From an uncultured Bacteriovoracaceae bacterium (lineage in GTDB: Bacteria > Desulfobacterota > Desulfomonilia > UBA1062): a stretch of DNA of 64,000 bases. The notes under the pieces are model-generated. The model made no database searches and was not told the DNA's origin. It worked only from the letters and a program-made list of their open reading frames with translations. Each line of letters opens with the position of its first letter. Within the stretch, counting starts at the first letter, position 1. The stretch lies in the NCBI GenBank assembly GCA_964618975.1, contig CAZUDI010000003.1, forward strand, positions 61,962-125,961, written 5' to 3'. A program made the position numbers and the translations under genes. Shown here one piece after another: positions 29,824 through 63,085 of this stretch.

Positions 29824-29824
29824 A

Positions 29825-30253: not shown

Positions 30254-30294
30254 TCTCCCCCCTGACGGGTATGCCGGCACCCTGGTCCCGTACA

Positions 30295-30627
30295 TCACCG
30301 CCCCTCTTTCTTATCGGTCAAGGGGACCGATGTCTGAGTGGGCGTCTCCGCTGAGATTCCCTGGATGCGGGCGATCCTCTCGTAGAGCACCTGGGCGATA
30401 CCGATGCCCTCTCCGGCCGTGGCCCCCCTGGCCATGGCCATATAGAGCAGGTCCTTGGAAATCTCCCCCGAGAGTCCCTCGCCCATGAAACCCTCACCGA
30501 CCCCGGACCCCGTGGCCTTGAGCAGCTGGTGGACGAAGATGGACTCGAATTCACGGCAGGCCTCGCGCAGCGCCCGCTCGGGATGCTGGGCCTTCATATG
30601 GTAGAGCGCCGCCACATTGCCGATCAT
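30295..30627 (-). CDS. rod-binding protein (FlgJ N-terminal-domain homologue lacking a glucosaminidase domain)
   Basis: 'ALREACREFESIFVHQLLKAT' matches the FlgJ N-terminal / rod-binding signature (PF10135). Start ATG 30627 forms an ATGA overlap with the flgI stop. About 110 aa. Confidence 0.6.
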   Translation of the reverse strand: MIGNVAALYHMKAQHPERALREACREFESIFVHQLLKATGSGVGEGFMGEGLSGEISKDLLYMAMARGATAGEGIGIAQVLYERIARIQGISAETPTQTSVPLTDKKEGR

Positions 30628-31712
30628 ATGACCTCCAGATCGGCGTACAGCGCGTCCGAACGCTTGATGCACTGCAGGATCACCACCAGGTCCCGCGGGG
30701 TCACCCCGATGGCATTGAGGGCCCCCACCAGGTCCCCGATGGTTGTGCCGTCCGGCAGCACCACGAGTCTGCGCCCCCCCTCCTCCACCGTCACCCCGCT
30801 CCCGGGGACCACGGTGGTCACCCCCTGGGAGAAGGGCTGCGGCTGAGAGACGCCAGGTTCTTCCGTGATCTTGATGCTCAGGTTGCCGTGGGCGATAGCC
30901 ACGCTGGAGATACGCACATTGTCGCCCATCACCACGGTGCCGGTACGCTCGTTCACCACCACCTTGGCCCGCGAATCGGGGTTCACATCCACCCCCTCGA
31001 TCATGGCCACGAAGTCGACAATCCGCTCATGATACGCCTCTGGCACCTGCACACGGATCGTGGAAAGGTCCTCGGCATGCGCCACGCCCTGGCCAAGCCG
31101 CTTGTTGAGCGAGCCCACGAGCCGGTGCGCCGTGGTGAAGTCCGGGATGTCCATCACGAGCCGCAGCTCATTCCCCAGGGTGAACTCCGTGGAACGTTCC
31201 ACTACCGCCCCGCGGGGAATCATTCCCACCGTGGGGAAATTCTTGGTGACGCCGCTGCCGCTCTCACCCGCAACGGCAAAGCCGCCCACGGAGATGGCGC
31301 CCTGCCCCAGGGCATACACCCGCCCGTCGGGACCGTAGAGCGGGGCCGCAATCAGCGTACCGCCCGCCAGGGACGTGGCATCCCCCAGCGAGGAGATGGT
31401 GCAGTCGAGGTATTGTCCGCTGCGGGCAAAGGGAGGCAGGATCGCCGTCACCATGACCGCGGCCACGTTCTTGACCTTGAGCGCGTTCGCATCCACGGTG
31501 ATACCCATGGTCCGCAGGAGATTGGCCAGGGAATAGACGGTGAACTGCGCGCCGGTCTTGTCGCCGGTACCGTTGAGCCCCACTACCAGCCCGTACCCGG
31601 CAAGGCGGTTCTCCCGCACGCCCTGGATCTCCACCAGGTCCTTGACCCGTACGCCGTAGGCCACGGGGGCCAAAAGCAGTATTCCCAATATGAGCAGCAG
31701 TATCTTTTTCAT
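30624..31712 (-). CDS. flgI: flagellar P-ring protein FlgI
   Basis: Signal peptide, then 'VRVKDLVEIQGVRENRLAGYGLVVGLNGTGDK', the conserved FlgI N-terminus. Confidence 0.95.
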   Translation of the reverse strand: MKKILLLILGILLLAPVAYGVRVKDLVEIQGVRENRLAGYGLVVGLNGTGDKTGAQFTVYSLANLLRTMGITVDANALKVKNVAAVMVTAILPPFARSGQYLDCTISSLGDATSLAGGTLIAAPLYGPDGRVYALGQGAISVGGFAVAGESGSGVTKNFPTVGMIPRGAVVERSTEFTLGNELRLVMDIPDFTTAHRLVGSLNKRLGQGVAHAEDLSTIRVQVPEAYHERIVDFVAMIEGVDVNPDSRAKVVVNERTGTVVMGDNVRISSVAIAHGNLSIKITEEPGVSQPQPFSQGVTTVVPGSGVTVEEGGRRLVVLPDGTTIGDLVGALNAIGVTPRDLVVILQCIKRSDALYADLEVI

Positions 31713-31720
31713 CCTTCACC

Positions 31721-32413
31721 TCAGAACGGCCAGAGCTTGTCCATGGCCCGCGACACGATACCCCTTCTCTGCTGGTCGCCGATGATACCGTTCCCATAAT
31801 AGTCAATCCTGAGATCGGCGATGGAGGTCGATGCAATGGTGTTGTTCGAGCTGACATCATCGGGCCGGATGATTCCCGAAAGCAGGATATACTGCACCTC
31901 CGAATTCACACGGATCTGTTTCTTACCCTCGATCATCAGGTTGTTTGACGGCAACACCCTGACCACGCGGGCCGAGATTGTGGCCTGGATGCTACCCTTG
32001 CGCGAGGTGTCCCCGGTGCCCTCAAACTCGCTAGAGGAAGAGGCCCCGAGAGCAGGGGTCAGGGCATAACCCTTGACGGAGGCCCTGTCGAGTGGCAGAC
32101 CCAGGAGATTGGTGATCGAGCTGTCCGCCTTATTCGTCCGCTCCGCCTTGGTTTCGGCCTCCTTGCTGGCCGACGAGTTCTCCGCGATCTGCACCACCAC
32201 GAGATCACCCACGCGGCGTGCCTTGGATTCAGCATAGATGTCCGAAAATTTGGCGCCCGGCGACCACAGGGATCCGGGTATGGCGACGCTTTCCACGCGC
32301 TCCTCCACCGGTGGCGCCAGGGTATCCACCTCCAGGCGCGGCGGCCCCTCGTGCGCACAGCCCCCCATAATCAGGGCCAGCATCACCAACATGATGCACA
32401 TGTGTCTCTGCAT
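31721..32413 (-). CDS. flgH: flagellar L-ring lipoprotein FlgH
   Basis: Lipobox 'IMGGC'; 'GSLW...GDLVVVQIAENSSASKEA' and a C-terminal 'GNGIIGDQQRRG' match FlgH. Confidence 0.9.
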   Translation of the reverse strand: MQRHMCIMLVMLALIMGGCAHEGPPRLEVDTLAPPVEERVESVAIPGSLWSPGAKFSDIYAESKARRVGDLVVVQIAENSSASKEAETKAERTNKADSSITNLLGLPLDRASVKGYALTPALGASSSSEFEGTGDTSRKGSIQATISARVVRVLPSNNLMIEGKKQIRVNSEVQYILLSGIIRPDDVSSNNTIASTSIADLRIDYYGNGIIGDQQRRGIVSRAMDKLWPF

Positions 32414-32422
32414 ATCTTCCTC

Positions 32423-33379
32423 CTAGAAAACTACCCGTACGCAGGAAGGAGCAATAATGGTGCCAAACACCTGCTTACCGGAGGTCACATTCCTCACCGG
32501 TATGCGTTGACTGAGGCCGCCGTCCCTGAGTGCCACCCCCTTGTCCCGCACCACCAGCCTGTCGCGGGAGGCCTCGATAATCACCGTCTCTCCCCGGCAC
32601 ACCACGGGCCGGGGCTCGACATTGGCCTGCAGGATGGGCGCCTCGGCGCGGATGGCCGTCTTGGCACGCATGCCCGTACAGGACGCCTTGTCGGTCATGA
32701 GGCTCTCGAGGTCGCAGACCTTCAGGGGCCGCATGACCAGGGCCGCCTCTGTGATCATCTCCCCGCGCCGGATGGGGGCACGCGCCACAGGGACCTGGGT
32801 CTCCAGCGATACCCGGGCAGAGATGCGCACACGGGTGGATGATGGTCCCTCCCCGAAGCTCAGGATCATGCTCACCGGACCCAGAAAATCCTCGCGGGGG
32901 GAAATTTTTGCCTGCGGACCCTGTCGCTCATTGCCCCACACCCTCACACTGAGCGGGGCCCTGATGTCTTCAATAACGATCCGCCCCCTGCCCGCATAGG
33001 GCTGTTCACGCATCAGCGCGCGGGTAAAGATCGTCTCCAGTTGCTCACGCACGATCTCCGTATACAACGGCGCAACCAGCACCTCGCTGGCACCTCTCAC
33101 CTGCAGGGGAAGGCTCACCTGGCGGGCAATCCTCTCCCTGATCCAGGCTGCCGATACGCTACTCCCCGCTGGGGACACGGGGGTGCGCATGAGACGTAGC
33201 GCGCTCAGGCGCTCGGCGTCATGGCCCTCGATCCGGGCCAGGTCCCCGAGCGTCACAACCGAATGAGGAATCTGAACGCGCTCTTTGAGCACCACGGTGA
33301 TGCCTGACGAGGCCAGAACAGGCCCTCCCAGCAACAGCACACTAAAAACCAAGATCAGACCGCGGCCGCTGATCTTCAT
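32423..33379 (-). CDS. flgA: flagellar basal-body P-ring formation chaperone FlgA
   Basis: Signal peptide, with a SAF/FlgA-type C-terminal domain ('GETVIIEASRDRLVVRDKGVALRDGGLSQRIPVRNVTSGKQVFGTI'). Sits upstream of flgH/flgI. Confidence 0.8.
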   Translation of the reverse strand: MKISGRGLILVFSVLLLGGPVLASSGITVVLKERVQIPHSVVTLGDLARIEGHDAERLSALRLMRTPVSPAGSSVSAAWIRERIARQVSLPLQVRGASEVLVAPLYTEIVREQLETIFTRALMREQPYAGRGRIVIEDIRAPLSVRVWGNERQGPQAKISPREDFLGPVSMILSFGEGPSSTRVRISARVSLETQVPVARAPIRRGEMITEAALVMRPLKVCDLESLMTDKASCTGMRAKTAIRAEAPILQANVEPRPVVCRGETVIIEASRDRLVVRDKGVALRDGGLSQRIPVRNVTSGKQVFGTIIAPSCVRVVF

Positions 33380-34158
33380 GACCGCAGGTTATTGGCCACC
33401 TGCAGCATGGAATCCGCCGTCTTGATGGCCTTGGAATTCAGCTCGTAGGCGCGCTGGCCGGCGATCATATTGATCATCTCCTCCACGGCGTCCACATTGG
33501 ACATCTCCAGATATCCCTGAGCGATGGTGCCCATATTCTCTGTTCCGGCCTCTCCCTGAATGGGATCGCCGGAGGCCGGGGTGGGAATATAGGCGTTGCG
33601 GCCGATGGATTTCAGCCCCGCCGGGTTGGTGAAGGTGTACAGCGAGATCTCACCGGTCGCCAGGATCTCGTCGCCCGCCGACATGCAGGTGAGGTTGCCG
33701 TCCTGATCGATATTGATGATCGCGGTGTCCGCCGGCACCGCGAAGTCCGGCTGGAGCCGGTCACCGCGTGAGTTTACGATATAGCCGTCTGAGTCAATCT
33801 TGAAGGCCCCATCGCGGGTGTAGAGCTCATCACCATCCGAAAGCAGCAGGAAGAACCCGTTGCCCTCAATGGCCAGATCCAGTTGGTTCTTGGTCTCCAT
33901 ATAGTCGCCCTGGGTAAAGATCTTCTGGACCGCCACCGGCCGGGTGCCCATGCCCACCTCGATACCCACCGGCACGGTGCCGCCCTCGGCGGTGGGGCTG
34001 CCCTTTTCGCCATAGGCTTCATAGAACAGGTCTTCGAACTCGGTGCGGCTCTTCTTGAACCCCGTCGTACTGACGTTGGCCAGATTGTTGGCCATCACAT
34101 CGATCATCATCTGCTGGGCGCCCATGCCGGACGCCGCGGTCCACATCGCTCTAATCAT
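33376..34158 (-). CDS. flgG: flagellar basal-body distal rod protein FlgG
   Basis: 260 aa. 'MIRAMWTAASGMGAQQMMIDVMANNLANVSTTGFKK' and C-terminus 'YLEMSNVDAVEEMINMIAGQRAYELNSKAIKTADSML' are canonical. Confidence 0.9.
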   Translation of the reverse strand: MIRAMWTAASGMGAQQMMIDVMANNLANVSTTGFKKSRTEFEDLFYEAYGEKGSPTAEGGTVPVGIEVGMGTRPVAVQKIFTQGDYMETKNQLDLAIEGNGFFLLLSDGDELYTRDGAFKIDSDGYIVNSRGDRLQPDFAVPADTAIINIDQDGNLTCMSAGDEILATGEISLYTFTNPAGLKSIGRNAYIPTPASGDPIQGEAGTENMGTIAQGYLEMSNVDAVEEMINMIAGQRAYELNSKAIKTADSMLQVANNLRS

Positions 34159-34181
34159 GATCCATCCTCCCTCTGTTGCCC

Positions 34182-34919
34182 TTAAGCCAGCACTCCCACA
34201 TTGCGGATGGAGAGTGAGTACGTGTCTGAAAATGACTTGATCACCTTCTGGAAGGCCTCATACGCCCGCTGGGTGGTGATCAGCCCCACCATCTCCCGGA
34301 TGGGCTCCACATTGGACAGCTCGAGGCTCCCCTGCCGCACGGACAGCGCCTCCACCGGCGCGGGCACGAAACCCTCCTGCACGGCGAACATCCCATCGCC
34401 GCCCCGAATGAGGGCCTCCGGCGGGATGTCCACCACCCGCAGCACATCCACGACCCTCCCGTCGAGGACCACCGTGCCGTCGGTCTCAACGCTCACCGTG
34501 CCCCCGCCCAGGGGCAGATCCCCGCCCTCGCCCTGGACCGGGTCCCCGTGCGCATTCACGAGCACACCCTCCATGGATAGCTGGAAGGCCCCCGCACGCG
34601 TATAGCGCTCGCCGTCGAGGGTGTTTACCACAAAGAATCCCTCCCCCGTCACCGCCAGATCGAGGGGGTTAGCTGTCTCCCTCAATGGACCCGGGGTCGT
34701 ATCAATGAAGGGGCTCTCGGCGAGCACATCCACCGGTACCCGCTGGTATTGCCCGGAGGCAAGCGGGGTGGTGTCCAGCAGACGGATGTACTGCTCAAAC
34801 GCGAGGGCGTCCTTCTTGAAACCCGAGGTCCCCGCATTGGCCAGATTATGGGAGACGAGGGCCAGATTCTCCTCCATTGCCCTGGCTCCGGCAGCCGCCG
34901 TATAGATACCCTGATCCAT
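34182..34919 (-). CDS. flgF: flagellar basal-body rod protein FlgF (or second FlgG-type rod protein)
   Basis: Start at MDQGIYTAAAGARAMEENLALVSHNLANAGTSGFKK (ATG 34919) after a GGAGGA RBS. C-terminus 'LELSNVEPIREMVGLITTQRAYEAFQKVI' is the rod-protein consensus. Confidence 0.85.
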   Translation of the reverse strand: MDQGIYTAAAGARAMEENLALVSHNLANAGTSGFKKDALAFEQYIRLLDTTPLASGQYQRVPVDVLAESPFIDTTPGPLRETANPLDLAVTGEGFFVVNTLDGERYTRAGAFQLSMEGVLVNAHGDPVQGEGGDLPLGGGTVSVETDGTVVLDGRVVDVLRVVDIPPEALIRGGDGMFAVQEGFVPAPVEALSVRQGSLELSNVEPIREMVGLITTQRAYEAFQKVIKSFSDTYSLSIRNVGVLA

Positions 34920-34943
34920 GGTCGATCCTCCTGAGGCCCTCTG

Positions 34944-34959
34944 AGCAATAAGGGTGCCA
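34944..34959 (-). promoter_or_regulatory. sigma54 (-24/-12) promoter TGGCAC-N5-TTGCT upstream of flgF
   Basis: On the minus strand: TGGCAC-CCTTA-TTGCT, an exact match to the RpoN consensus TGGCAC-N5-TTGCW. It ends about 25 nt upstream of ATG 34919. Lying inside the longer annotated ORF, it supports the shorter start. Confidence 0.6.
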
Positions 34960-35157
34960 GCTACGGCAGAACCTCTTAAAGCCAGGCCCCGACACCGACA
35001 CAGCGGCAAATATTGCCCCTGGCCCGGCAGACGGTGGCCGGTCCCCCTGTCAGCGGGACCCCACAAGCGCCCGGTACGAATCTTGTGGCGGTCGACAGGC
35101 AGACCCTTTCGAACCGCAGGCAGCGGCCGGGGGCAGATCCCGGATGTATGGGGCTCT

Positions 35158-52134: not shown

Positions 52135-52663
52135 GGACGACACCCTCATCCGTGATCGGGTCTATCTCAGCGACCCCGAGGGGATCGAGATCCTTCCCGG
52201 GGTGCCGCAAGCCATCGCCCAGCTCAACGCCCATGGCATACCCGCCATCATCGTCACGAACCAGTCCGGTATCGCCCGGGGGCTCTTCGACGAAAAACGC
52301 CTGGCCGAGATCCACGCCCGGCTTACGACACTGCTGGCCGCCCGTGGTGCCCGCATCGATGCCATCTACTACTGCCCGCACCATCCCGAAGGGATCGTAG
52401 CTCAGTACCGCCTGGAGTGCCCCTGCCGCAAGCCCGAACCCGGCATGCTCATCCAGGCCGCGCGCGACTTCGCGCTCGACCTTACACGCTGTTATCTGAT
52501 CGGCGACCAGTCCATCGACATCGCCACGATCAAACGCGTAGGCGGCACCGGCATCCAGCTCGTCCCGCCCGGGACGGCGCCCCCCTGCGGGGCCGACCAT
52601 ACCGCCCCGGACCTTGAGCAGGCCGTAGAGTGGATCCTGAGGAAGGAAAACCTCTCATGCTGA
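52097..52663 (+). CDS. gmhB: D-glycero-D-manno-heptose 1,7-bisphosphate phosphatase (HAD-IIIA)
   Basis: 'VFLDRDDTLI' (the DxDxT motif), 'IIVTNQSGIARG', and 'CYLIGDQSIDIA' with a CxHxxxxC..C zinc motif ('YCPHHPEG...CPCRKPEPGM'). Confidence 0.75.
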   Translation: MRTVYPTGVFLDRDDTLIRDRVYLSDPEGIEILPGVPQAIAQLNAHGIPAIIVTNQSGIARGLFDEKRLAEIHARLTTLLAARGARIDAIYYCPHHPEGIVAQYRLECPCRKPEPGMLIQAARDFALDLTRCYLIGDQSIDIATIKRVGGTGIQLVPPGTAPPCGADHTAPDLEQAVEWILRKENLSC

Positions 52664-53622
52664 GCGCCAAAGAGCTGGTCTCACACCTGCTCCCCCTCAT
52701 CCGCGGGCTGATCACCCTCATCCGCTTCACCCCCTATCCGCTGGCCATCCTCGGCGGCCGGACCCTGGGGCTCCTCGGCTGGGCCCTGGATCCCTTCCAC
52801 CGCCGGTCAGCCGACACCCAGATGCATGCGGCCCTCGGGACGGCCTGGCACCCCCTGATGAGCCTCAAGGTCTTCATGAACCAGGGGGACATCCTCGTCG
52901 ACACGATCAAGTATGCCTATATGGACACACAGGAGCTCAGACGCCGCGTGCGCATCGAGGGCCGGGAGCACCTCGAGCAAGCCCTGGCCAGCGGGCGGGG
53001 CATCATGCTCGTGACCGGGCACATCGGCAACTGGGAGATCCTCGCCAACCTCGCGCGCCTGATCGACATCGAATTCTGTGTTATGGCCGATCAACGCGAC
53101 GACCCCGGGCTGGAGAGCATCATCGACGGCCTGCGCGAACGCACCGGGGCCACCATCCTGCCGCCCAAGGGCAAGGCCCTCATGCTTGTGCGCGAGCTGC
53201 GGCGAGGCCGAACCATCGGCATGGTCGTGGACCAGCGCGGCCGCAGGGGCGAACGCCTGCTGTGTGACGTCTTCGGCCTGCCCGCCCCCACCAACCCCGC
53301 CCCGGCCGTCATCGCGCTGAAGGGCCGGGCCCTGATCGTGCCGGTGACGGCCGTCCGGGAGCACCATGGCTACCGCATCCGCATCGAGGAGCCCCTGGAT
53401 GCGACCAGCTTCGGGTCCAGCGCTCAGGCCATCCAGGAAGCCAGCGACTTCATGCAGTCCTGGGTAAGCCGCGAGGTGGAGCGACACCCGGATCAGTGGT
53501 TCTGGCTGCACTGCCGCTGGACCAGACGCTCCGAAATGCGCCGCCTGCTGCGGGAGGGCATCGATTTCCGTGATTATATCCTGAAGCAGGCCGAGGCGGT
53601 CAGGCAGGGTCGCTATTTATGA
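52658..53622 (+). CDS. lpxL: lipid A biosynthesis late (lauroyl/myristoyl-type) acyltransferase, LpxL/LpxM family
   Basis: N-terminal TM helix, the 'LVTGHIGNWE' HX4D-like acyltransferase motif, and 'DQRGRRGE'. Has a C-terminal tail 'RWTRRSEMRRLLREGIDFRDYI' past the usual LpxL end. Confidence 0.75.
53514..53557 (+). repeat. 44-nt segment nearly identical (2 mismatches) to 54609-54652, within the lpxL paralogue tails
   Basis: cgctggaccagacgctccgaaatgcgccgcctgctgcgggaggg against cgctggaccaggcgctccgagatgcgccgcctgctgcgggaggg. Confidence 0.8.
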
Positions 53623-53720
53623 ACATCCACCATTCCGCCAGGCCACAGGCACGAGCCGTTGCGATCAGCGGTGATGCCGGTCCATCTATGGCGCCCCCCC
53701 TTAAAAGGAGAAACATACGC

Positions 53721-54755
53721 ATGCAGATACCATCACGAATCCTCTATCACTCGGCTAAGGCCGGCATCTTTCTCATTGGCGCCATGCCCGCTGTCATGGC
53801 GCAGTTCCTGGGCCAGCTGCTCGGGATCCTCGGCTTTATCCTGGCGCCGCAGCACCGCAAAACCGCCGAACTCCAGATGCGCCAGGCCCTGGGTGACGAC
53901 TACAACAGGAGCCTGCCGCTCAAGGTCTTCATGCATCACGGTCGCGTCCTGGTCGATGCCATCCGTTATGCCGGCATGGATACGGATAGCGTGCATCAAA
54001 GTTTCGAGATCGAGGGCCGTGAGTACCTCGATGCGGCCCTGGCTTCTCCGCGCGGCGTCATGCTGATCGAGGGACATCTCGGCAACTGGGAGATGACACC
54101 CCACCTGCCACGCGTCCTGGGTTTCGCTTGCGATATCATCATGAACGAGCGCAAGAACCCCGGTATCGAGGCCCTCATCCAGGAACTGCGCGACCAGCCC
54201 GGGGTTACCAAGCTGCCCCCCAAGGGGGGGGTGATGAAGGCCATGATCGCCACCCTCAGGGCCGGCCATACGGTCTTCATGGCCGCCGATCAGCGCGGCC
54301 CGCGAGGCAATACGCTGGTCTGCAACTTCTTCGACCTGCCCGCCCTCACCAGCCCGGTCCCGGCCTACATCGCCATCAAGGGTGACGCCCTGATCGTGCC
54401 GGTGTCCATCATTTACATGGCCGACCGCTACCGCGTCCGCTTCGAGGCCGCCATCGATCCGCGCGACATCTGCCCGAACGCCGACGCCCTCACCGGTCTG
54501 CGCCAGGGCATGCAGACCGAGCCCGTGGAGAGACTCAGTACAATCATCCAGGACTGGCTGGTCGCGATGATCCGGCAATATCCCACCCAGTGGATCTGGC
54601 TCTACAGCCGCTGGACCAGGCGCTCCGAGATGCGCCGCCTGCTGCGGGAGGGGGGAGATTTCAGGGCCTATATCCGCTCTCAGGCCGAGCGCATCAACCA
54701 GAGGCCGGGGACGCATCCTGAAGTGGGCAGTCAAACCGGAGCGTTCCTGCCATAA
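53721..54755 (+). CDS. second LpxL/LpxM-family late acyltransferase (paralogue)
   Basis: Start at MQIPSRILYHS (ATG 53721; AAGGAGA RBS). 'LIEGHLGNWE' and 'DQRGPRGN' motifs, and the same C-terminal tail 'RWTRRSEMRRLLREGGDFRAYI'. Confidence 0.75.
   Translation: MQIPSRILYHSAKAGIFLIGAMPAVMAQFLGQLLGILGFILAPQHRKTAELQMRQALGDDYNRSLPLKVFMHHGRVLVDAIRYAGMDTDSVHQSFEIEGREYLDAALASPRGVMLIEGHLGNWEMTPHLPRVLGFACDIIMNERKNPGIEALIQELRDQPGVTKLPPKGGVMKAMIATLRAGHTVFMAADQRGPRGNTLVCNFFDLPALTSPVPAYIAIKGDALIVPVSIIYMADRYRVRFEAAIDPRDICPNADALTGLRQGMQTEPVERLSTIIQDWLVAMIRQYPTQWIWLYSRWTRRSEMRRLLREGGDFRAYIRSQAERINQRPGTHPEVGSQTGAFLP
54609..54652 (+). repeat. second copy of the 44-nt near-identical segment (see 53514-53557)
   Basis: See paired feature. 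Confidence 0.8.
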
Positions 54756-54889: not shown

Positions 54890-54964
54890 GGCGGCATAGC
54901 CAAGTGGTAAGGCGACGGTCTGCAAAACCGTTATTCACCGGTTCAAATCCGGTTGCCGCCTCCA
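54890..54964 (+). tRNA. tRNA-Cys (anticodon GCA)
   Basis: GGCGGCAtaGCCAAGTGGTAAGGCGACGGTCTGCAAAACCGttattcaCCGGTTCAAATCCGGTTGCCGCCtCCA shows a 7-bp acceptor stem, anticodon loop CT-GCA-AA, T-loop GGTTCAAATCC and an encoded CCA. Confidence 0.85.
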
Positions 54965-54988: not shown

Positions 54989-55915
54989 ATGAAGAAGGCT
55001 TCCCACATAACGCACATCATACCCCTGCTGCTGTTGCTCTTTTCCACGCCTCTGCTGGCCGACGGCGGGGGGCGCATCGAATGCATGGGTCTGCGAATAT
55101 CCGGGGAAACCCGCTATGAGCTCACCATCCCCGCCGGCCAGAGTGCCCTCGAATGGCCCCTGGAGCACTATCTCGTCGGACTCAACGCCACAGTCGATAT
55201 GGACGATCACCTGGAGGCCGAGCTCACCTGCCTGATTTCCCCCTGGCAGATCTCGGAGTCGCCCCTGAAGGATTCCGACTGGCTTGTCGATACGCATCCG
55301 CGCCTGCGCTACTATTCGGAGACCGACCTGGACACCAGGGGGCTGCTCCTGTGGGCCCAGGTGCGTTTCTATCCCATCGCGCACGAAAGCCTCTCCCTCG
55401 GAATCACCGGCGGATACCGCTTCCAGGAATTCAGCTTCATGGGCTATGATGCCCTCCAGGCCGAATACACCTCGGGGGACTGGAGCGGGTATGTGGTCGG
55501 GGGGGAGGTGATCACCTACCGCGTCCTGTACGACCTGGTTCAGGCGGGTCTGAGCCTGCGCCTTAGACAGGGCGACGCCTTCCACCTCACGCTCGACACC
55601 AGCTTCATTCCCCTGGCGCGTGTCCGCGACGCCGACAACCATCTGCGGCGCTATAAAAAACTGCAAGGTTCCTGCATAGGCGACGGGATTGCGGTGGATC
55701 TCGCCGTACGATACCGCGTGTATGCCCGCTGGCACCTGCTTCTTACAGGCGGTCTGACCCGTGTGAGTACCAGCGGTCATCAGGACCAGATCTGGTATGG
55801 CGACGATCCCATAACCCCCGGTACCGACGACACCGGCCAGGCCTCCCTGCATCTCCCCCTAAAGGTGGAGTTGAACGCCGTGCACCTCGGGTGCGGCCTC
55901 GGCCTGCAGTTCTAA
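54989..55915 (+). CDS. outer-membrane beta-barrel protein of unknown function
   Basis: Start at MKKASHITHIIPLLLLLFSTPLLA (signal peptide). Alternating amphipathic beta-strands, ending '...GLGLQF' (C-terminal Phe). Family not determined. Confidence 0.55.
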   Translation: MKKASHITHIIPLLLLLFSTPLLADGGGRIECMGLRISGETRYELTIPAGQSALEWPLEHYLVGLNATVDMDDHLEAELTCLISPWQISESPLKDSDWLVDTHPRLRYYSETDLDTRGLLLWAQVRFYPIAHESLSLGITGGYRFQEFSFMGYDALQAEYTSGDWSGYVVGGEVITYRVLYDLVQAGLSLRLRQGDAFHLTLDTSFIPLARVRDADNHLRRYKKLQGSCIGDGIAVDLAVRYRVYARWHLLLTGGLTRVSTSGHQDQIWYGDDPITPGTDDTGQASLHLPLKVELNAVHLGCGLGLQF

Positions 55916-55967: not shown

Positions 55968-57317
55968 ATGTCGCAGGCCAAGAGACTCGCCAACCGCAAT
56001 ATCGGTCGTGCCCGGCACTCCCTGCCCTATCTCCCCGTTGAGGCGCAGGAACTGATCGCTATCATCCCCTGCCTGCTTGCGCTCGGAGATGCGCCCTGCG
56101 GGGTGTACGGCCACCCCGTGTGCACCCCCTCCCAGTTCGATCTGCTCATGCGGCACCTGGGATGCAAGCCCGACCTTCCCGTCGGACGCCTGCCGGACAG
56201 AATCTGTCTTGAGAGCCTCATGGCCATTCCGCGCCCCTCTCTTACGGGCCCCTTCTCCCTCGGTCTGACGCTCATTGCCATTCCGCGTCCGGATATCCAT
56301 CTTGCGGAGGTCCACCGCCAGATGGAGCAGGTCGGATCGTTTTTACGCCACAGGGGAATCACAACCACCACCCTGGTCCAGACGCAGTTTCCGGAGTTCC
56401 TGATCAACGAGATCATGCGCTTAGGTATCGTGTTGGGCGGCAAACACCCGGTCACCAGCAGAGAGGAACTCACCGCGGAGGCGATCCATATCGGCGAGCT
56501 GCCCTCCGCGCTTAACGACCCCACCCTCGTCCTTCACGCGGACAGGAACCCCTTCCAGGACTATCTGAACCGGGAGCTCGCCGCCCGCGTGAGCCGCTCT
56601 GCCTATCCCTGTCCCCTGAGCATCCCCGGGGCCAATCCCTTCATCCTGCCCTACCTGAACATGCTCACCGAATCCGAGGAACGTGCCGACCACGACCGCC
56701 TGACCAAGATGCGCACGAGCCTGTTCCACCTCTTCGGGGGCTTCGGACCCACACGCGGGGTGGAGACCGTCCGGGGGACCTCCGTGCCGGACAGAACCAG
56801 CCTGGCCCATCTCAGTGCCGGGGAACGCCTGCGACTGAGAAAATGGCTCGTGCCCCTCGAGGATGACGAGCTGCCGCTCTTCTCCTGGCCGCCCCTCTCG
56901 TCCGGGGCCCTGGACGAGGTATCCCTCACCTGCCGCAGTGGCCTGTGGTCCCTCCAGGAGGCGGGAGATTTCGCCCACCGCTACTCCTGGATGGTGCTCG
57001 CCTGGGGGGCCCTGGCCGGGCTGATCGGCATAGAGACCCGCATCCGACACGCCGCCTCCCACAATCTGAAGCCGCAGGCCACGCAATACCTCATGGACAT
57101 GCTCGCGGCCTTGGAGGATGGAGCCACGCTCATCGTCACCCCCGATCCGCTCCAGGGTTCTATCCGTGTGAGCTCCGGACGCTTCTTCACCTCGAACAAA
57201 CCCTTTGCCCTGCTGGAGAACGGCATCAAATTCAGTCTCGAGTTGCACGAACCGGTCAAGAAGAAGGCCCTGATTGACGATAGGGATCTGGAGATCACAG
57301 CCAGGACAAAAATATGA
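55968..57317 (+). CDS. hypothetical protein (449 aa), no confidently recognised domain
   Basis: Continuous ORF with even codon usage, translationally coupled (ATGA) to the downstream pseudo-receiver gene. There is a weak, unverified resemblance of the first ~200 aa to the N-terminal region of class I adenylate cyclases. Confidence 0.5.
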   Translation: MSQAKRLANRNIGRARHSLPYLPVEAQELIAIIPCLLALGDAPCGVYGHPVCTPSQFDLLMRHLGCKPDLPVGRLPDRICLESLMAIPRPSLTGPFSLGLTLIAIPRPDIHLAEVHRQMEQVGSFLRHRGITTTTLVQTQFPEFLINEIMRLGIVLGGKHPVTSREELTAEAIHIGELPSALNDPTLVLHADRNPFQDYLNRELAARVSRSAYPCPLSIPGANPFILPYLNMLTESEERADHDRLTKMRTSLFHLFGGFGPTRGVETVRGTSVPDRTSLAHLSAGERLRLRKWLVPLEDDELPLFSWPPLSSGALDEVSLTCRSGLWSLQEAGDFAHRYSWMVLAWGALAGLIGIETRIRHAASHNLKPQATQYLMDMLAALEDGATLIVTPDPLQGSIRVSSGRFFTSNKPFALLENGIKFSLELHEPVKKKALIDDRDLEITARTKI

Positions 57318-58339
57318 CCATCGTTACGGACATCACCATTCTCATCGTCGGCCCGGACAATATCTTCCGGCGATCGATGGCCAACATGCTCACGACGATC
57401 GGATTCAGCAACATCCACGAGGTGCATGACGGAACCACGGCCTGGGAGGTGTTGCGCCGGATTCAGCCCCGCATCGTCATCACCCAGTGGGACATGCCGG
57501 AGATGAACGGTATGGCCCTCCTGAAGCTGATCCGCAGGGACAACGAATACGGTGACACCCCGCTCATTCTGTGGACCAAAGAGATCGACAAAACCGATGT
57601 CGTTAAGGCCGGCGAAACGGGGGTGAACTCCATCATCGTGGATCCGGTCGGCCTCGAGAGCCTCGAGTCCAAGATGCATGCGATCCTCGATTTTGAGATG
57701 AGTCCTCAGACCAAGCAGGCCAAAAACATCATGGCCAGGGGCGATTTCTATCTCAAAGAAAACCGCCTGGAGGAGGCGCTTAGAGAATACGAGCACGTGC
57801 TGGACATCCTCGAATCGGCCGAGGTGTACTACAATATCGGCTACATCAAGACGGCCAAGGGTGAGTACGACGAGGCCCTGGCCGCCTTCCGCAAGGCCAC
57901 CCAGCTGAATCAGATGTTCGCCAAGGCCTACAAGGCCATGGCGGATGTCTACCTCAGAATGGACAACAAGCAAATGGCCGAACAATACCTGCAGATGGCC
58001 GGCGAGATCTTCCTGGAACGCGAGATGCATGAGAGCGCCGAGAGCATCTTCAACGAGATCCTGGCAATCAATCCGGACACCATCAACGTCTACAACAGCC
58101 TGGGCATCATCTACCGCCGTCAGCACCGCTTCCAGGATGCCCTCATCCAGTACCAGAAGGCCGTCAAGATCAGCCCCACGGACGAGAACATCTACTTCAA
58201 CATGGGACGCGTCTACCTCGAGCTGAACAATCCGGACATGGCCAAGAAATGCTTCATCAAGGCCGTCAAGATCAATCCCAATTTCGATATCGCCCAGGGA
58301 ATGCTCACCGCCATCCAGACTTCGGAAAAGGTGGACTGA
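57314..58339 (+). CDS. CheY-homologous pseudo-receiver domain fused to TPR repeats
   Basis: The receiver aligns residue-by-residue with CheY ('GFSNIHEVHDGTTAWEVL', 'IVITQWDMPEMNGMALLKLIRRD', 'TPLILWTKE...SIIVDPV'), but the phospho-acceptor Asp is Gln (ITQW vs ISDW), the DD pair is PD, and the conserved Lys is Asp (VDPV vs VKPF). The C-terminal ~200 aa are TPR repeats ('AEVYYNIGYIKTAKGEYDEALAAFRKA', 'NIYFNMGRVYLELNNPDMAKKCFIKAVKINP'). Confidence 0.7.
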   Translation: MTIVTDITILIVGPDNIFRRSMANMLTTIGFSNIHEVHDGTTAWEVLRRIQPRIVITQWDMPEMNGMALLKLIRRDNEYGDTPLILWTKEIDKTDVVKAGETGVNSIIVDPVGLESLESKMHAILDFEMSPQTKQAKNIMARGDFYLKENRLEEALREYEHVLDILESAEVYYNIGYIKTAKGEYDEALAAFRKATQLNQMFAKAYKAMADVYLRMDNKQMAEQYLQMAGEIFLEREMHESAESIFNEILAINPDTINVYNSLGIIYRRQHRFQDALIQYQKAVKISPTDENIYFNMGRVYLELNNPDMAKKCFIKAVKINPNFDIAQGMLTAIQTSEKVD

Positions 58340-58535: not shown

Positions 58536-58781
58536 ATGGGTAACAACGATTCCTTCCTCAGCATCCTTATCCTGTTGGTTCTCTTCTTCGTGCTGCCACC
58601 GGTGCTGAAGCTCCTGGGCAGGTATACACTGAACAGCAAGGAGCAGGCCGAAAGGCCGGAACCTCTGGCCTCCGCACCCGCCGATCCTGCGGACTACAGC
58701 GGGCATTTCACGTCCGAGAGCGGCCTCCACGCGGGTGAGGCCGGGCATTCCTACAAACCGATCAACCCCAAATGGTTCTAG
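58536..58781 (+). CDS. small hypothetical membrane protein (~82 aa)
   Basis: Start at MGNNDSFLSILILLVLFFVLPPVLKLL (TM helix), followed by a Pro/Ala-rich tail. No family recognised. Confidence 0.35.
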   Translation: MGNNDSFLSILILLVLFFVLPPVLKLLGRYTLNSKEQAERPEPLASAPADPADYSGHFTSESGLHAGEAGHSYKPINPKWF

Positions 58782-59413
58782 GTCCCGCAAAAGGCAATCC
58801 CGGGCTCAGGTTCCTCCTCGGCATCGTCGTCATCTCCCTTTCTATCTACCTCTTCTACATCGGTCTTGCCCGCAAAAACTCGCCCCAGCTCTTCATCGTG
58901 CCCGCCCCGGTCAAGACCGTGGACTATCCCTGCAAGGTGGAACGCAGCGACACCTTGTCCGCATGCATCCCCAGCACCATGCGCGCCGCCCCCACACAGA
59001 AGGGGCTCGTCTTTCACTCGCTTGAGCTACGAACCCGCGGGGAGATCTTCATCCTGGAGGGGGGGCTGCCCGAGGAGAAGGCCTGGAGGGACTCGCTAAA
59101 GACCCCCATCGTACGGGTCTTTCTTGGTGACACGGAGGACTCCGGGACCTTCCACCTCATGAAGGACCTCCTGAGGCACCGCTGGAACCCTTCCCTCATG
59201 GGGATCAAGGCCCGGCTGATGCCTTCATGGACCAAGGGTCGCAGCGACGTGGAAATCCTCATACCCGAGGCGCTCCCGGCCCTGATCTTCTATACACCGG
59301 AACGCGCCCTCGGCCTGGCCTTCGGTACGGACCACGTGGCGGTGCTAACGGTGAGCGGTCACTTTGACAAGACGCTCCTCGCCGGCATGCTGCGTTCGAT
59401 CAGCCCTCAGTGA
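58772..59413 (+). CDS. hypothetical membrane-anchored protein (213 aa)
   Basis: N-terminal TM helix (FLLGIVVISLSIYLFYIGLA) then a soluble domain. Overlaps the preceding ORF by 10 nt. Confidence 0.45.
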   Translation: MVLGPAKGNPGLRFLLGIVVISLSIYLFYIGLARKNSPQLFIVPAPVKTVDYPCKVERSDTLSACIPSTMRAAPTQKGLVFHSLELRTRGEIFILEGGLPEEKAWRDSLKTPIVRVFLGDTEDSGTFHLMKDLLRHRWNPSLMGIKARLMPSWTKGRSDVEILIPEALPALIFYTPERALGLAFGTDHVAVLTVSGHFDKTLLAGMLRSISPQ

Positions 59414-59864
59414 CGGGGACGACCAGCAGGGGGCACGGCGGCTGTTTGAGGAGCTTCTCGGCCAGGTCGACCTTGAAGGACGAAAGCGTCCCCTTGGAGA
59501 CATCGTGCCCGAGGACCAGCAGGTCGATGCCCTGGTCCTGGATGACCTCATTGATCACGAGGAGGGGATTGCCCCGCATCACCAGCCGGTTGGCCGGGTC
59601 CACATCCCCAATGACCTCATGGCAGATGCTGTACATCTTGTCGCTGGCGGCCTTGATCACCTCCTCCTCGAGCTTGTCGGTGTTGATATGAGGCACATAG
59701 AAGCCGGCCGCGCCCTTGATATCGGTCACCGTGTGGAGCATGAAGAGTCTGGCATCGAAAATCCGTGCGACGCGGTAGGCGTAGCTGACCACCTGGATAC
59801 TGTGCCGACCGAGATCGAGATAGCAGAGCACCCTGGTGGGGTCCTGCGAAAACACCTTCTTCAT
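59400..59864 (-). CDS. universal stress protein (UspA family)
   Basis: Start at MKKVFSQ (ATG 59864; GAGGAGGG RBS). 'LLVLGHDVSKGTLSSF...CPLLVVP' is the USP C-terminal ATP-binding motif region (G-x2-G-x9-G(S/T)). Confidence 0.75.
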   Translation of the reverse strand: MKKVFSQDPTRVLCYLDLGRHSIQVVSYAYRVARIFDARLFMLHTVTDIKGAAGFYVPHINTDKLEEEVIKAASDKMYSICHEVIGDVDPANRLVMRGNPLLVINEVIQDQGIDLLVLGHDVSKGTLSSFKVDLAEKLLKQPPCPLLVVPVTEG

Positions 59865-59908
59865 TTCATCCCTCCTCATCATCGTTGAATGGTTACTTCA
59901 CGCTAGCC

Positions 59909-60289
59909 TTAGCGATTGCATACCGAATCGATCACATCCTTGAGGTCCTTAAGGTGGAAAGGCTTGGCCATAAAGGCATCCGCCCCCCGCTCGAAGGCCA
60001 CCTTGCGGGCGTCCTCCACGCTGAATCCCGTGATGAGGACCACCGGCATCCCGGGATACTGTTGCTTGACCTCGGTCATGAGCTTGAGCCCGTCCATCCG
60101 CGGCATGTGGATGTCCGTCACCACGATATCCAGGCGCCTCTCCTTCATGAGGTCCAGAGCGGCATAACCGTCCTTGGCGGTGGTGACATCGTACCCGAAC
60201 ATTCCCAGGAAGTCGGCGATGACCTGGGACAATTCATTGGAATCATCCACCACAAGCACTTGTTTTCTCTTATTCATTGCTCGGTTCAC
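59909..60289 (-). CDS. single-domain response regulator (CheY-like receiver)
   Basis: 'VLVVDDS', 'DIVVTDIHMPRMDG', 'VVLITGF', 'FMAKPF': all five canonical receiver residues are present. Confidence 0.85.
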   Translation of the reverse strand: MNRAMNKRKQVLVVDDSNELSQVIADFLGMFGYDVTTAKDGYAALDLMKERRLDIVVTDIHMPRMDGLKLMTEVKQQYPGMPVVLITGFSVEDARKVAFERGADAFMAKPFHLKDLKDVIDSVCNR

Positions 60290-60944
60290 TTGTCAAATCA
60301 ATAATCTCGTAGTCACGTAGCGAGGTATACTTCTTCGTATCGGCCTTGCTGAGCCTGGCCAGCTTGTCCATAACCTCCTTGACCTTGAAGATCTGGTCCT
60401 CCATGGTTTTCAGTATCTTCTGAACGCCACTGACCCGCTCCAGTTCCTCGCTCAGCTGCAGCATCTCGATATTTCCGAGGATGATGGTCAAGGGCGTGTT
60501 TATCTGATCCGAGAGGGTCACCGCGGTCTTGGCGATGGCATTGACCTCCTGTAAACGCCGCTGCTCGGCCCCGAACTTCTGCATGTCAAGTGCCCGGTGT
60601 ACCCGCATGAGAAGCTCCTCCTCGTCACAGGGCTTCAGCAGGTAATCGTAAACCCCGAGCCTAAGGGCCGAGACCGCCGTCTTGATGGAGCCGTAACCCG
60701 TGATCACAATCACCATGGTCCGCGGTGAGAGCACCTTGACATTCTCGAGCAGTTCCAGCCCGTCCATGCCCTCCATGACGAGGTCCGTCAGCACGAGATG
60801 GTAGTTCTTCTCATAAAGTAGCTTGAGGGCATCCTCGGCCGAGGCAACCCCATCCACCTCATACCCGTGAGATGTCAGGATATTCACCAGCGAATACCTG
60901 ACGATCTCTTCATCATCAACTATGAGTATTCTCTGTGTGCTCAC
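60270..60944 (-). CDS. response regulator: canonical receiver plus a C-terminal DHp (HisKA)-like helical domain lacking the phospho-accepting His
   Basis: Receiver 'ILIVDDEE', 'LVLTDLVMEGMDG', 'VIVITGY', 'LLKPC'. C-terminus 'AIAKTAVTLSDQINTPLTIILGNIEMLQ' resembles the HisKA H-box (hsHELRTPL..I.G..ELL), with Asp/Gln where the His would be. Confidence 0.65.
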   Translation of the reverse strand: MSTQRILIVDDEEIVRYSLVNILTSHGYEVDGVASAEDALKLLYEKNYHLVLTDLVMEGMDGLELLENVKVLSPRTMVIVITGYGSIKTAVSALRLGVYDYLLKPCDEEELLMRVHRALDMQKFGAEQRRLQEVNAIAKTAVTLSDQINTPLTIILGNIEMLQLSEELERVSGVQKILKTMEDQIFKVKEVMDKLARLSKADTKKYTSLRDYEIIDLTSEPSNE

Positions 60945-63085
60945 TGCCTGATCATCCTGTACTTGAGCCTGCTGATCTCCTCGTGCACGATGCCCTGGAG
61001 CTCCTTGACACGGAAGGGCTTGCGGATGAAGGTCGCGCCGGTGCGGTCGAAGAACTCCTTGACCTGCAAATCATAGGTATCTCCAGTAATGAAAAGAAAT
61101 CTCTGCTGCAGGCAGGGTTTCTTGCTGACGACCTCCCGGTACAGTTCCATGCCGTCCATGACCGGCATCCTCAAGTCCGAGATGATGAGCTCCCACTCAT
61201 GCTCATCCAGGTGCTCGTAAGCCTCGCGCCCGTTCCTGAAACTGCGGATGGAATAGTACGGTCCCAGGGCGTCGGCCATGAGATCAAGGAGATCCTCCTC
61301 ATCCTCCACTACCATGATCGTGCCCGGATCATCCCCCCCCTGCATCTCCTCCAAACAGCACTCGGCCATCTCATGACCCTGGGGGGTCCGAACCCTGTCT
61401 TCCCCTTTCTCGACCGCCGGGATCTTCACGATCGCCAGCGTCCCGTGATCGGTGTTCTCCAGGCTGATCTCGCCCCGGTGATCCGTGATGATCCCGTAAC
61501 AGATCGACAGCCCCAGACCGGTGCCCTTATCCACGGACTTGGTGGTGAAAAAGGGGTCGAAGACCTTGGGCATGACCTCGTCCAGGATCCCGGGGCCGGT
61601 GTCTTCGATCTGGATATGGACAGAGCCACCCTTGATAAAGGACCGGATGATGATATTGCCGCTCTCGTTGCCGATGGCATCGATGGAATTGTTGATGAGG
61701 TTGACCATGACCTGCTCCATGCAGTTCATGTCGGCCCGCACCACCAGGGGCGCCTGGGAGATCTCGTGCATGATCTTGATCCCCCGTTTCTTGATGGTGG
61801 GCTTGTAGAGATTCATGGTACGATCGATGATCTCGCGGATATCGAAGACCGTCTTGGCCGGCGGGAGGTTGCGCGAGAAGGTCAGCAGCGACCCTACTAT
61901 GTTGCGGGCCGAGTCGGCCGATTCCATCAGGGTGGTGAACCGCTCGCGATCGCGGGGGGTGAGATACGAGGTGTCGATCAGATCGGCGAACCCGAGGATG
62001 GGGGTGAGCTTGTTGTTGAGCTCATGGGCAATGCCCGAGGTGAGCAGCCCCAGCGAGGTGAGCTTCTCGGTCTGCATGCTGCGCTGCTCGATACGTTTCT
62101 TGAGCGTAACATCTTTGAGGATGAGCAGTATCTGGTCCGGCATGATGCGCTTGACGGAACACTGGCAGATGAAACTCGAGGCGTTGACCAGTACCAGGCC
62201 CACATCGAAGTCCCGGGCTTCACCCTCGGCCAGATCGTCCATCTGGGTCTTAAGGATCTGCAGGGATTCGGCGTCAAAGATATCTTCCAGGGTGAAGGGC
62301 TGACGCTGCAGGCGGGCAGACAGGGCCTGGTTGCTGAAAATCACCGTATCCTGCTCGATGAGGAGGATCATCTCCTCAGTGGAATCGACCACCGCCTTAT
62401 AGCGGGTGGAAATCTCCCGCAGCGTGGTCTCCTTCGTATGCACTTGCTGTTGCAGCTCGTTGTATTCCCTGCTGAATATGCCATAAAGGCTCAGGAGTGT
62501 CAGCATCTGGCCCACGAGCAGCCCCAGGAGCTCGAACATCCGCACGTCATGGACATGGAAAAAATTCTTCTCCGCATGTGAGAGGTTCAGGACGCCGACG
62601 ACCCTGTCACCCTCCTTGATGGGCACGCACAGCATCGAGCCGATCGGCACACGAGTATCGGGTCGCCGTTCGAAAAAGGCACAGCGCTCGGTATCCGAGA
62701 CCAGCACATGGCGCCCCTCCTGAGCACACTTCCCCGCCACCCCTTGGCCGAGGGCGATGCGGACATGTTTGTTGGTATTCTCGTTGTGGGAACCCGAGGC
62801 CGCCTTCAGGACCAGCTGATCTCCCGACACCATGAAGAGGGAGGCGTTCTTGCACTTGGATTCTTCGATGAGCACATTGACCACATAGGCATAGAAATCC
62901 TCCTCGGGTGAACCCTTGCGCACGAATTCCTGCAGCCGGAAGATGCCCGAGAAGATACCGATGGTGTCCTCGTAGAAGGTGGTCGTCTGACGGAGAAGGT
63001 CGAACAGTACCTCTTCCCGCCTGCCCCCCGAGGATGCCTCGAACTCGGTAATCTGATCCATCAACGTGCCCTCGATGCCCATCAC
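60941..63085 (-). CDS. hybrid sensor histidine kinase (GAF - PAS-like - HisKA - HATPase_c - receiver)
   Basis: GAF-like region ('VLNLSHAEKNFFHVHDVRMFELLG'); H-box 'LGLLTSGIAHELNNKLTPILGFADLI'; N/G boxes 'VMVNLINNSIDAI', 'IEDTGPGI', 'GTGLGLSICYGI'; C-terminal receiver 'IMVVEDEEDLL...LIISDLRMPVMDG...FIRKPF'. Confidence 0.85.
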   Translation of the reverse strand: MMGIEGTLMDQITEFEASSGGRREEVLFDLLRQTTTFYEDTIGIFSGIFRLQEFVRKGSPEEDFYAYVVNVLIEESKCKNASLFMVSGDQLVLKAASGSHNENTNKHVRIALGQGVAGKCAQEGRHVLVSDTERCAFFERRPDTRVPIGSMLCVPIKEGDRVVGVLNLSHAEKNFFHVHDVRMFELLGLLVGQMLTLLSLYGIFSREYNELQQQVHTKETTLREISTRYKAVVDSTEEMILLIEQDTVIFSNQALSARLQRQPFTLEDIFDAESLQILKTQMDDLAEGEARDFDVGLVLVNASSFICQCSVKRIMPDQILLILKDVTLKKRIEQRSMQTEKLTSLGLLTSGIAHELNNKLTPILGFADLIDTSYLTPRDRERFTTLMESADSARNIVGSLLTFSRNLPPAKTVFDIREIIDRTMNLYKPTIKKRGIKIMHEISQAPLVVRADMNCMEQVMVNLINNSIDAIGNESGNIIIRSFIKGGSVHIQIEDTGPGILDEVMPKVFDPFFTTKSVDKGTGLGLSICYGIITDHRGEISLENTDHGTLAIVKIPAVEKGEDRVRTPQGHEMAECCLEEMQGGDDPGTIMVVEDEEDLLDLMADALGPYYSIRSFRNGREAYEHLDEHEWELIISDLRMPVMDGMELYREVVSKKPCLQQRFLFITGDTYDLQVKEFFDRTGATFIRKPFRVKELQGIVHEEISRLKYRMIRQ

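Follow-up and report, generated by a model that had tools for sequence, protein, structure and literature searches.

To our knowledge, nearly all understanding of the class I adenylate cyclases comes from Escherichia coli CyaA and its control by the phosphotransferase system (PTS), and we know of no explanation of how members of this class are controlled in other phyla. Here, we describe two adjacent genes in a stretch of 64,000 nucleotides from an uncultured Bacteriovoracaceae bacterium (contig CAZUDI010000003.1, positions 61,962 to 125,961 of the forward strand), with the whole stretch being called the window. The first gene encodes a protein of 449 amino acids (aa), named X449, which is a divergent homologue of the class I adenylate cyclases without their catalytic residues. 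The second encodes its partner, a 341-aa protein composed of a CheY-like pseudo-receiver domain and tetratricopeptide repeats (TPR), to which we refer as the receiver-TPR protein. E. coli CyaA is regulated by the PTS and not by a receiver-TPR protein.

Two described systems come close to parts of this arrangement. In Pseudomonas aeruginosa, the TPR protein FimV, FimL, and the CheY-like protein PilG control the class III cyclase CyaB. Our pair is similar in having a CheY-like domain and TPRs alongside a protein of an adenylate cyclase family, whereas CyaB belongs to a non-homologous class, the P. aeruginosa proteins are separate, PilG can be phosphorylated, and no gene-pair or fusion relationship connects them. 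The closest functional analogy is given by the degenerate GGDEF/EAL proteins PelD, LapD, and FimX, which have the fold of a second-messenger enzyme and a role as receptors or scaffolds. X449 may be comparable to them, having lost catalysis while being retained under selection with a dedicated partner, although its fold and messenger differ.

The partner belongs next to the pseudo-receiver (aspartate-less receiver) domains, such as FrzS and the PsR domains of KaiA/CikA, which have been reviewed (PMC4395418, PMC12632262). It shares with them a receiver fold without the phospho-acceptor and other residues of the active-site quintet, and by this analogy it is presumably regulated by binding and not by phosphorylation. 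Unlike FrzS and KaiA/CikA, it carries TPRs on the same chain, and its gene is linked to that of a class I cyclase or pseudo-cyclase. TPR and adenylyl cyclase are not mentioned in the pseudo-receiver review of 2025, and neither the two reviews nor the papers found by full-text search describe a receiver-TPR protein linked to a cyclase or a pseudo-cyclase of class I. An earlier interpretation of the window from its letters only (the sequence-only reading) proposed the pair as an undescribed signalling module, and both the signalling type and the lack of a published description are supported here.

The features of the pair are as follows.

55968..57317, + strand: gene for the 449-aa class I adenylate-cyclase-like predicted pseudo-enzyme X449 (open reading frame [ORF]; profile homology)
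55968..56462, + strand: N-terminal nucleotidyltransferase-like domain of X449, residues 1-165, homologous to the cyclase catalytic core
56223..56279, + strand: degenerate catalytic loop of X449, residues 86-104 (AIPRPSLTGPFSLGLTLIA), in place of the cyclase G-S-x-G-S...S-D-L-D-Y-W
56865..57257, + strand: C-terminal alpha/beta domain of X449, residues 300-430 (AlphaFold2 [AF2] predicted local distance difference test [pLDDT] 80-94; hhalign E 1e-3; secondary structure)
57255..57290, + strand: conserved tail motif of X449, VKKKALIDDRDL, residues 430-441 (family consensus KKKALLDD[IS]DL)
57314..57317, + strand: ATGA start/stop overlap, the ATG of the second gene lying on the TGA of the first
57314..58339, + strand: gene for the 341-aa pseudo-receiver and TPR protein (ORF; Pfam, NCBIfam)
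57329..57691, + strand: CheY-like pseudo-receiver domain, residues 6-126 (CheY alignment, NCBIfam, matches to solved structures)
57350-57355, + strand: G13-P14 in place of the acid pocket
57485-57487, + strand: Q58 in place of the acceptor Asp
57641-57643, + strand: D110 in place of the Lys
57716..58318, + strand: TPR region, residues ~135-335, ~5-6 repeats (Pfam TPR models)

X449 is a divergent class I cyclase homologue without the catalytic residues

X449 has no Pfam or NCBIfam match at E<=1, no match by sequence in the PDB, and no defence-system match in PADLOC. Its family is small, with 13 clusters among 5.8 billion proteins and 18 representatives among 1.84 billion, all of them ~450 aa long and unnamed. 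A HMMER search of the 1.84 billion representatives with the X449-family profile returns these 18 members only and does not reach the cyclases; the clue to the cyclase link came from the gene neighbours of the receiver-TPR partner.

The profile-profile comparison of the 18 X449 sequences with 25 class I cyclases by hhalign yields a probability of 96.8% and an E value of 2.6e-10 over 380 aligned columns, with X449 residues 2-382 matching cyclase residues 18-541 collinearly. Aligned separately, the thirds of the protein keep the same register (N-terminal E 4.7e-10, middle 1.1e-4, C-terminal 1e-3), the support for the C-terminal domain alone being weak; the reversed-profile and wrong-block controls gave 0.19 and 0.31. 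A second cyclase alignment of different composition still matches X449 with a probability of 91.5% and an E value of 8.4e-7. Along this second alignment, 81% of the X449 helix and strand positions have the same DSSP state in two independent AF2 models, compared to 43% on average and at most 51% for shifted alignments. The secondary-structure order of the C-terminal X449 domain equals that of cyclase residues ~460-600 in the AF2 model of a natural cyclase-receiver-TPR fusion (see below). The pairwise BLASTP matches of X449 to two cyclases are marginal yet collinear (E 0.01-0.03). Because the hhalign, sub-block, second-alignment, and DSSP tests agree, X449 is a divergent homologue of the class I adenylate cyclases.

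Compared to class I cyclases of the E. coli CyaA type (Adenyl_cycl_N, Pfam ID PF12633, plus Adenylate_cycl, Pfam ID PF01295), X449 is collinear over ~380 residues with the same order of secondary-structure elements. It shares with them the N-terminal NI.R.R motif, the WxxL helix of the C-terminal domain, and the E-x-x-R...G-[KR]-x-P pattern (EEFYRT...AGRxP versus YEIMRTG...AGKHP). Unlike them, X449 has the 20-residue loop after the third strand deleted, and its length falls short of that of its 660-680 aa cyclase relatives by ~220 aa and of that of E. coli CyaA (848 aa) by ~400 aa. X449 stays below the Pfam gathering thresholds of the class I cyclase families and lacks their catalytic residues. 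Since the PDB is empty by sequence for class I cyclases as well as for X449, no structural template is available.

The sequence-only reading had recognised no domain in the 449-aa protein beyond a weak N-terminal similarity to class I adenylate cyclases. The lack of a Pfam or NCBIfam match agrees with that description, whereas the profile-profile comparison does reveal a homology; the weak similarity is genuine and reaches over ~380 residues. A search with the PF01295 and PF12633 models, as the same reading proposed, finds nothing in the window protein and two sub-threshold matches among the 18 members (PF12633 at E 0.052 and PF01295 at E 0.35, in one member each), which are the sole cyclase Pfam matches of the family. 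X449, being without any database annotation, is hereby given a family and fold assignment.

In E. coli CyaA, residues S103, S113, D114, D116, and W118 are described to be essential (Linder 2008, as cited in PMC12104821). We added CyaA to the cyclase alignment to map these residues; they fall on alignment positions S115, S125, D126, D128, and W130, which are conserved in 24-25 of the 25 cyclases. The X449 residues under these five positions in the hhalign alignment are R89, G99, a gap, L100, and L102. The GS...SDxD...W signature is missing in all 18 members, none of which has a DxD, and the D116 position is always occupied by L, V, I, F, or M. The Gly-Ser loop has become (P/V/L)-R-P with P90 invariant, and in half of the members residues 86-104 are wholly without an acidic residue. 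An alignment shift by a few residues would restore no DxD. Residues of the scaffold are retained, namely, E148 and R151 of the EEFYRT-like helix, G158, and P161. Because the Ser, Asp, and Trp residues for two-metal nucleotidyl transfer are lost, X449 is a predicted pseudo-enzyme that very probably makes no cyclic AMP (cAMP).

Between related loci, X449 is 37-44% identical, and dN/dS among close pairs is 0.13-0.29, indicating purifying selection. Some strongly conserved motifs are absent from the cyclases (the ELPLFSWPPL, RFFTSNKPFA, and VTPDPLQGSI blocks), and W307-P308, G397, and R405 are invariant in the family. Since X449 is under purifying selection, it is not a decaying remnant; a pseudogene is ruled out by this dN/dS range and the full-length ORFs.

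The receiver-TPR partner and its link to cyclases

The receiver part of the partner is matched by Response_reg (Pfam ID PF00072) at residues 9-120 with 62 bits (cutoff 30.2). Positions 5-125 of the NCBIfam CheY model align end to end with residues 6-126, bearing out the full-length CheY alignment of the first ~125 aa in the sequence-only reading. With 73.5 bits versus a cutoff of 189 for the CheY equivalog NF007901, the domain is CheY-like and not CheY. Its best matches among solved receiver domains are CheY proteins (residues 7-125, E 1e-20 to 1e-17). The TPR part scores well over the cutoffs of TPR_1, TPR_2, and TPR_8 (Pfam IDs PF00515, PF07719, and PF13181) with 112, 109, and 96 bits, these models giving 4-5 repeats and TPR_2 matching five stretches, in line with the ~5 repeats counted earlier. 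The closest solved sequences to the TPR region are OGT and consensus TPRs, with the OGT TPR being the best natural match (E ~1e-31).

The MAFFT alignment with E. coli CheY is ungapped in the receiver core and pairs D12 with G13, D13 with P14, D57 with Q58, T87 with T88, and K109 with D110. The receiver is thus without four of the five active-site residues and retains only T88, while two canonical receivers elsewhere in the window retain DD/D/T/K. The sequence-only reading was right about Gln at the acceptor and Asp at the Lys position, and its acid-pocket change from DD to PD is off by one: DD aligns with Gly-Pro, and an Asp follows one position later. A misplaced acceptor Asp, which that reading had named as a possible objection, was not found and is ruled out by the ungapped core and by the acceptor column, which is Gln, Glu, or Arg in 59 of 59 close homologues (Q in 54, E in 4, and R in 1). 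Among 60 distant homologues, the position is A, G, S, V, or T in 59 and D in 1, so that an acceptor Asp occurs in only 1 of 119 receiver-TPR homologues (P0078, from locus L058). From these columns, the pseudo-receiver state appears to be ancestral to a much wider receiver-TPR family. As the acceptor Asp, the acid pocket, and the Lys are missing, the receiver is predicted to have no phospho-switch and cannot, by this reasoning, be switched by phosphorylation.

This receiver-TPR family is large and of uniform architecture (~340 aa), with close orthologues being 58-70% identical and a wider group 40-46%. Between related loci, the partner is 60-71% identical, far above the 37-44% of X449, and its dN/dS of 0.05-0.12 among close pairs indicates purifying selection.

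The ORF coordinates, the shared + strand, and the ATGA coupling given in the sequence-only reading are exact. We compared the pair with related loci from Desulfomonilia, Syntrophaceae UBA1062, and "Deltaproteobacteria" metagenome-assembled genomes. In all 14 complete loci, X449 lies directly upstream of its receiver-TPR partner gene, answering the earlier question of whether the pair is kept together. The spacing ranges from a 4-nucleotide (nt) overlap to a 21-nt gap; the ATGA overlap of the window is also present in locus L015, and the other relatives have gaps of 1-21 nt. The GC content at third codon positions of both ORFs is 0.80-0.84, similar to that of the neighbouring genes. On the + strand, no terminator-like site is found between X449 and its partner or between the pair and the upstream gene.

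Two receiver-TPR genes of the wider group are located directly downstream of a class I adenylate cyclase of 667-677 aa (PF12633 plus PF01295). A homologue search with that cyclase yields 44 relatives, among which two proteins of ~1020 aa, P0180 and P0182, are natural cyclase-receiver-TPR fusions, with Arg at the acceptor position. Among the metagenome loci with downstream DNA, a receiver-TPR gene follows on the same strand in 16 of 16 loci whose cyclase is >=34% identical to the reference, at a distance of 47-111 nt in 9 of them. Together with loci L019 and L021, there are 18 loci with a cyclase and a receiver-TPR gene, of which ~12 are distinct. These pairs occur in other Desulfobacterota and in Nitrospinota-like organisms, and their cyclases are bona fide 660-680 aa enzymes of one subclade; more distant class I cyclases have no receiver-TPR gene within ~4 kb. 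The window pair has the same layout, with a cyclase-family gene directly upstream, co-oriented, and a partner of ~340 aa. The sequence-only reading missed the active cyclase and receiver-TPR pairs and the fusions, as well as the lost catalytic residues and the apparently ancestral pseudo-receiver state.

Some receiver-TPR loci differ in their surroundings. On the Nitrospinota-like contig of L021 (3719-9032), three receiver-TPR paralogues stand in tandem behind a class I cyclase with the tail ...KAKLDLL, and cheW and a STAS gene lie a few kb beyond them. Stand-alone receiver-TPR genes adjoin pyruvate kinase in L057-L059; they are near HSP20 in L020, L057, and L058 and near FtsH in L020 and L059, and no cyclase lies within 5-8 kb in L020 and L057-L059.

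Tail motif and possible joint role of the pair

X449 ends in a conserved motif, which in the window reads KKKALIDDRDL (residues 431-441). Among the 10-mers of the family, it ranks third in conservation (0.82), with K433, D437, and D438 invariant, and lies at the C-terminus or <=12 residues from it, in a tail with an AF2 pLDDT of <50. The receiver-TPR-linked cyclases end similarly in [KR]-x-[KR]-L-D-[TKL]-D, and the fusions retain the motif (TQLDID, SALDLE) immediately ahead of the linker to the receiver, while E. coli CyaA, unlike X449 and these cyclases, is without an LDxD tail. In two cyclases, P0167 and P0169, the motif is found twice (e.g., SRLKLDLDEQGPARRRPPRSKLKLDLD), which would fit a modular docking peptide. 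Being a conserved short motif in a disordered tail beside a TPR partner, it suggests a docking peptide.

The TPR domains of Hop and CHIP read short EEVD tails, and the OGT TPR has an asparagine ladder. By analogy, X449 resembles the partners of Hop and CHIP, as its disordered C-terminal tail bears a short acidic motif that is conserved. Unlike EEVD, the basic-L-D-x-D motif is internal in the fusions and in most X449 proteins, and a carboxylate clamp is unlikely because the motif is not always at the extreme C-terminus.

The explanation we favour, and consider reasonably probable, is that the pair is a degenerate "class I cyclase plus pseudo-receiver/TPR" module, now forming a non-catalytic complex. 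In a Desulfomonilia-type lineage, the cyclase gene would have been shortened from ~670 to ~450 aa, losing the catalytic residues. X449 and its partner may act jointly as a scaffold, adaptor, or sensor; we infer such non-catalytic joint action because the genes have stayed next to each other in the same orientation, often with translational coupling, and purifying selection acts on both. The two proteins would then interact physically, with the TPR domain as the putative docking surface and the basic-Leu-Asp-x-Asp tail, common to the active cyclases, as the likeliest docking element on X449. The output might be related to the cell envelope, as the gene neighbourhood alone hints.

Several observations weigh against this explanation. 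In 7 cyclase loci, the partner is 0.75-2.2 kb off, and in L023, where the intervening genes of these seven were inspected, opposite-strand genes lie between. Four receiver-TPR homologues have no adjacent cyclase (L020, L057, L058, and L059), for which reason the TPR protein may have other partners. Vaguely similar tails (RSRNIDL, KSRIDI) also occur in some cyclases without a neighbouring partner. In the AF2 fusion model, the tail and linker have a pLDDT of 29-37 and the receiver is also of low confidence, so that the model lends no support to tail-TPR docking; with only 2 sequences for the receiver part and no contact read-out, this was a weak test. The model was built from cyclase rows only, as a combined MAFFT alignment smeared the receiver-TPR rows across the cyclase part and was discarded. 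The loss of activity is read from sequence, with no solved class I cyclase structure to refer to, and the new X449 motifs ELPxFSWPP, QGSI, and RFF could mark a new active site.

In a bolder and more tentative form, which we regard as doubtful as a whole, the pseudo-receiver/TPR proteins would be dedicated phosphorylation-independent regulators of the class I cyclase subclade of Desulfobacterota, Nitrospinota, and relatives, docked on the LDxD tail. The Desulfomonilia module would be wholly non-catalytic, with the cyclase fold persisting as a scaffold or nucleotide sensor in control of an envelope (lipid A/outer-membrane) function. If this bolder form is true, the non-enteric class I cyclases would have their first known regulatory partner, and X449 would be the first pseudo-cyclase of the class.

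Gene neighbourhood, alternative explanations, and significance

The other features of the window that bear on the pair or surround it are as follows.

28063-35066, - strand: flagellar cluster flgK, flgN, rod-binding (FlgJ-like), flgI, flgH, flgA, flgG, flgF
52630-54755, + strand: two tandem Lip_A_acyltrans (LpxL-like) paralogues
54890-54964, + strand: tRNA-Cys (GCA), between the second lipid A acyltransferase gene and the Omptin-like gene
54989..55915, + strand: Omptin-like outer-membrane beta-barrel gene, upstream of the pair (Pfam Omptin 28.6 bits, cutoff 22.6)
59400-63085, - strand: two-component cluster with Usp, a single-domain receiver (126 aa), a receiver-HisKA protein (224 aa), and a 714-aa ORF

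The Omptin-like protein has a signal-peptide-like N-terminus and may be a protease or an enzyme that modifies lipid A or the outer membrane. Its gene probably starts at the ATG at 54989 (giving 308 aa, in agreement with the identical contig L054), because the mechanical ORF start at 54953 overlaps the tRNA-Cys. An obligatory third member of the pair it is not: the link is broken in L005, where an opposite-strand gene is inserted, and in L015, where an acyltransferase takes its place. The related genomes carry one to three Lip_A_acyltrans copies, with three in L015.

Downstream of the pair (58536-59413, + strand) are two ORFs of 81 aa and 213 aa, the latter without a significant Pfam or NCBIfam match; both are present on the identical contig L054 and not conserved downstream in other relatives. 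In the two-component cluster, the 126-aa and 224-aa receivers retain the canonical Asp residues in the alignment, the 224-aa protein has no Pfam ATPase-domain match, and the 714-aa ORF resembles histidine kinases by BLAST.

The first alternative, compatible with our favoured explanation as its output, is that the pair was recruited to envelope control together with the Omptin-like protein and the lipid A cluster, for example in lipid A acylation or outer-membrane remodelling. An envelope-related output is possible because the lipid A neighbourhood is constant: the cluster lpxB-msbA-lpxK-gmhB-lpxL-lpxL precedes the pair in the window, L001/L003, L005, L014, and L015 despite an X449 identity of 37-44%. 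Moreover, the Omptin-like gene is directly upstream in 12 of 14 related loci, with no + strand terminator-like site between the genes. However, besides the two broken Omptin links, the active cyclase and receiver-TPR pairs of other organisms have unrelated neighbourhoods (e.g., a trp operon or a peptidase M16), neither X449 nor its partner has an evident signal peptide by eye, unlike the Omptin-like protein, and the gene order could persist through shared ancestry within one class. We therefore consider specific recruitment to envelope control to be unlikely.

The conserved non-cyclase motifs of X449 (W307-P308, G397, R405, and the three blocks) and the purifying selection on it would also be expected of a protein that is still an enzyme, with a re-tooled active site for a new substrate or chemistry, regulated or targeted by the receiver-TPR protein. 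This is quite unlikely, as none of the 18 members has kept any of the canonical metal and phosphate ligands, the loop now consists of an invariant Pro and hydrophobic residues, with half of the members having no acidic residue in 86-104, and no other enzyme family was matched in Pfam, NCBIfam, the PDB, or PADLOC.

It is very unlikely that the two proteins do not interact and are co-transcribed remnants with separate partners, X449 heading for loss. The receiver-TPR homologues without an adjacent cyclase would agree with this, and X449 evolves 2-4 times faster than its partner; against it stand the full-length ORFs in >=18 divergent lineages with a dN/dS of 0.13-0.29, the adjacency in 14 of 14 loci, and the natural fusions of the ancestral pair.

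Finally, the sequence-only reading proposed a role for the locked CheY-like TPR protein as a binder of the flagellar switch or motor or as a scaffold, here taken to include scaffolding of chemotaxis proteins with X449 as an accessory. In its favour, the receiver's closest solved relatives are CheY proteins, the genome encodes flagella, its flagellar cluster confirming a flagellated organism, and cheW is nearby in one distant locus (L021). The proposal is nevertheless hardly credible: the flagellar cluster is >20 kb from the pair, no flagellar or chemotaxis synteny was found in the 14 related loci or the other loci examined apart from the L021 cheW, the constant partner is a cyclase or pseudo-cyclase, and the score of 73.5 bits falls far below the CheY equivalog cutoff of 189.

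Returning to the non-catalytic complex as the favoured explanation, the Desulfomonilia pair represents a natural experiment, in which the chemistry and the phospho-switch are gone and the pair persists under selection. Because it persists without them, a joint role of X449 and its partner would need neither cAMP synthesis nor phosphorylation. The pair would form a clean double-pseudo-domain module and is a clear example for the open question of pseudo-receiver control (PMC12632262). As a companion of the cyclase gene across a whole subclade, joined to it in two fusion proteins, the receiver-TPR gene is a concrete and testable candidate for a cyclase regulator.

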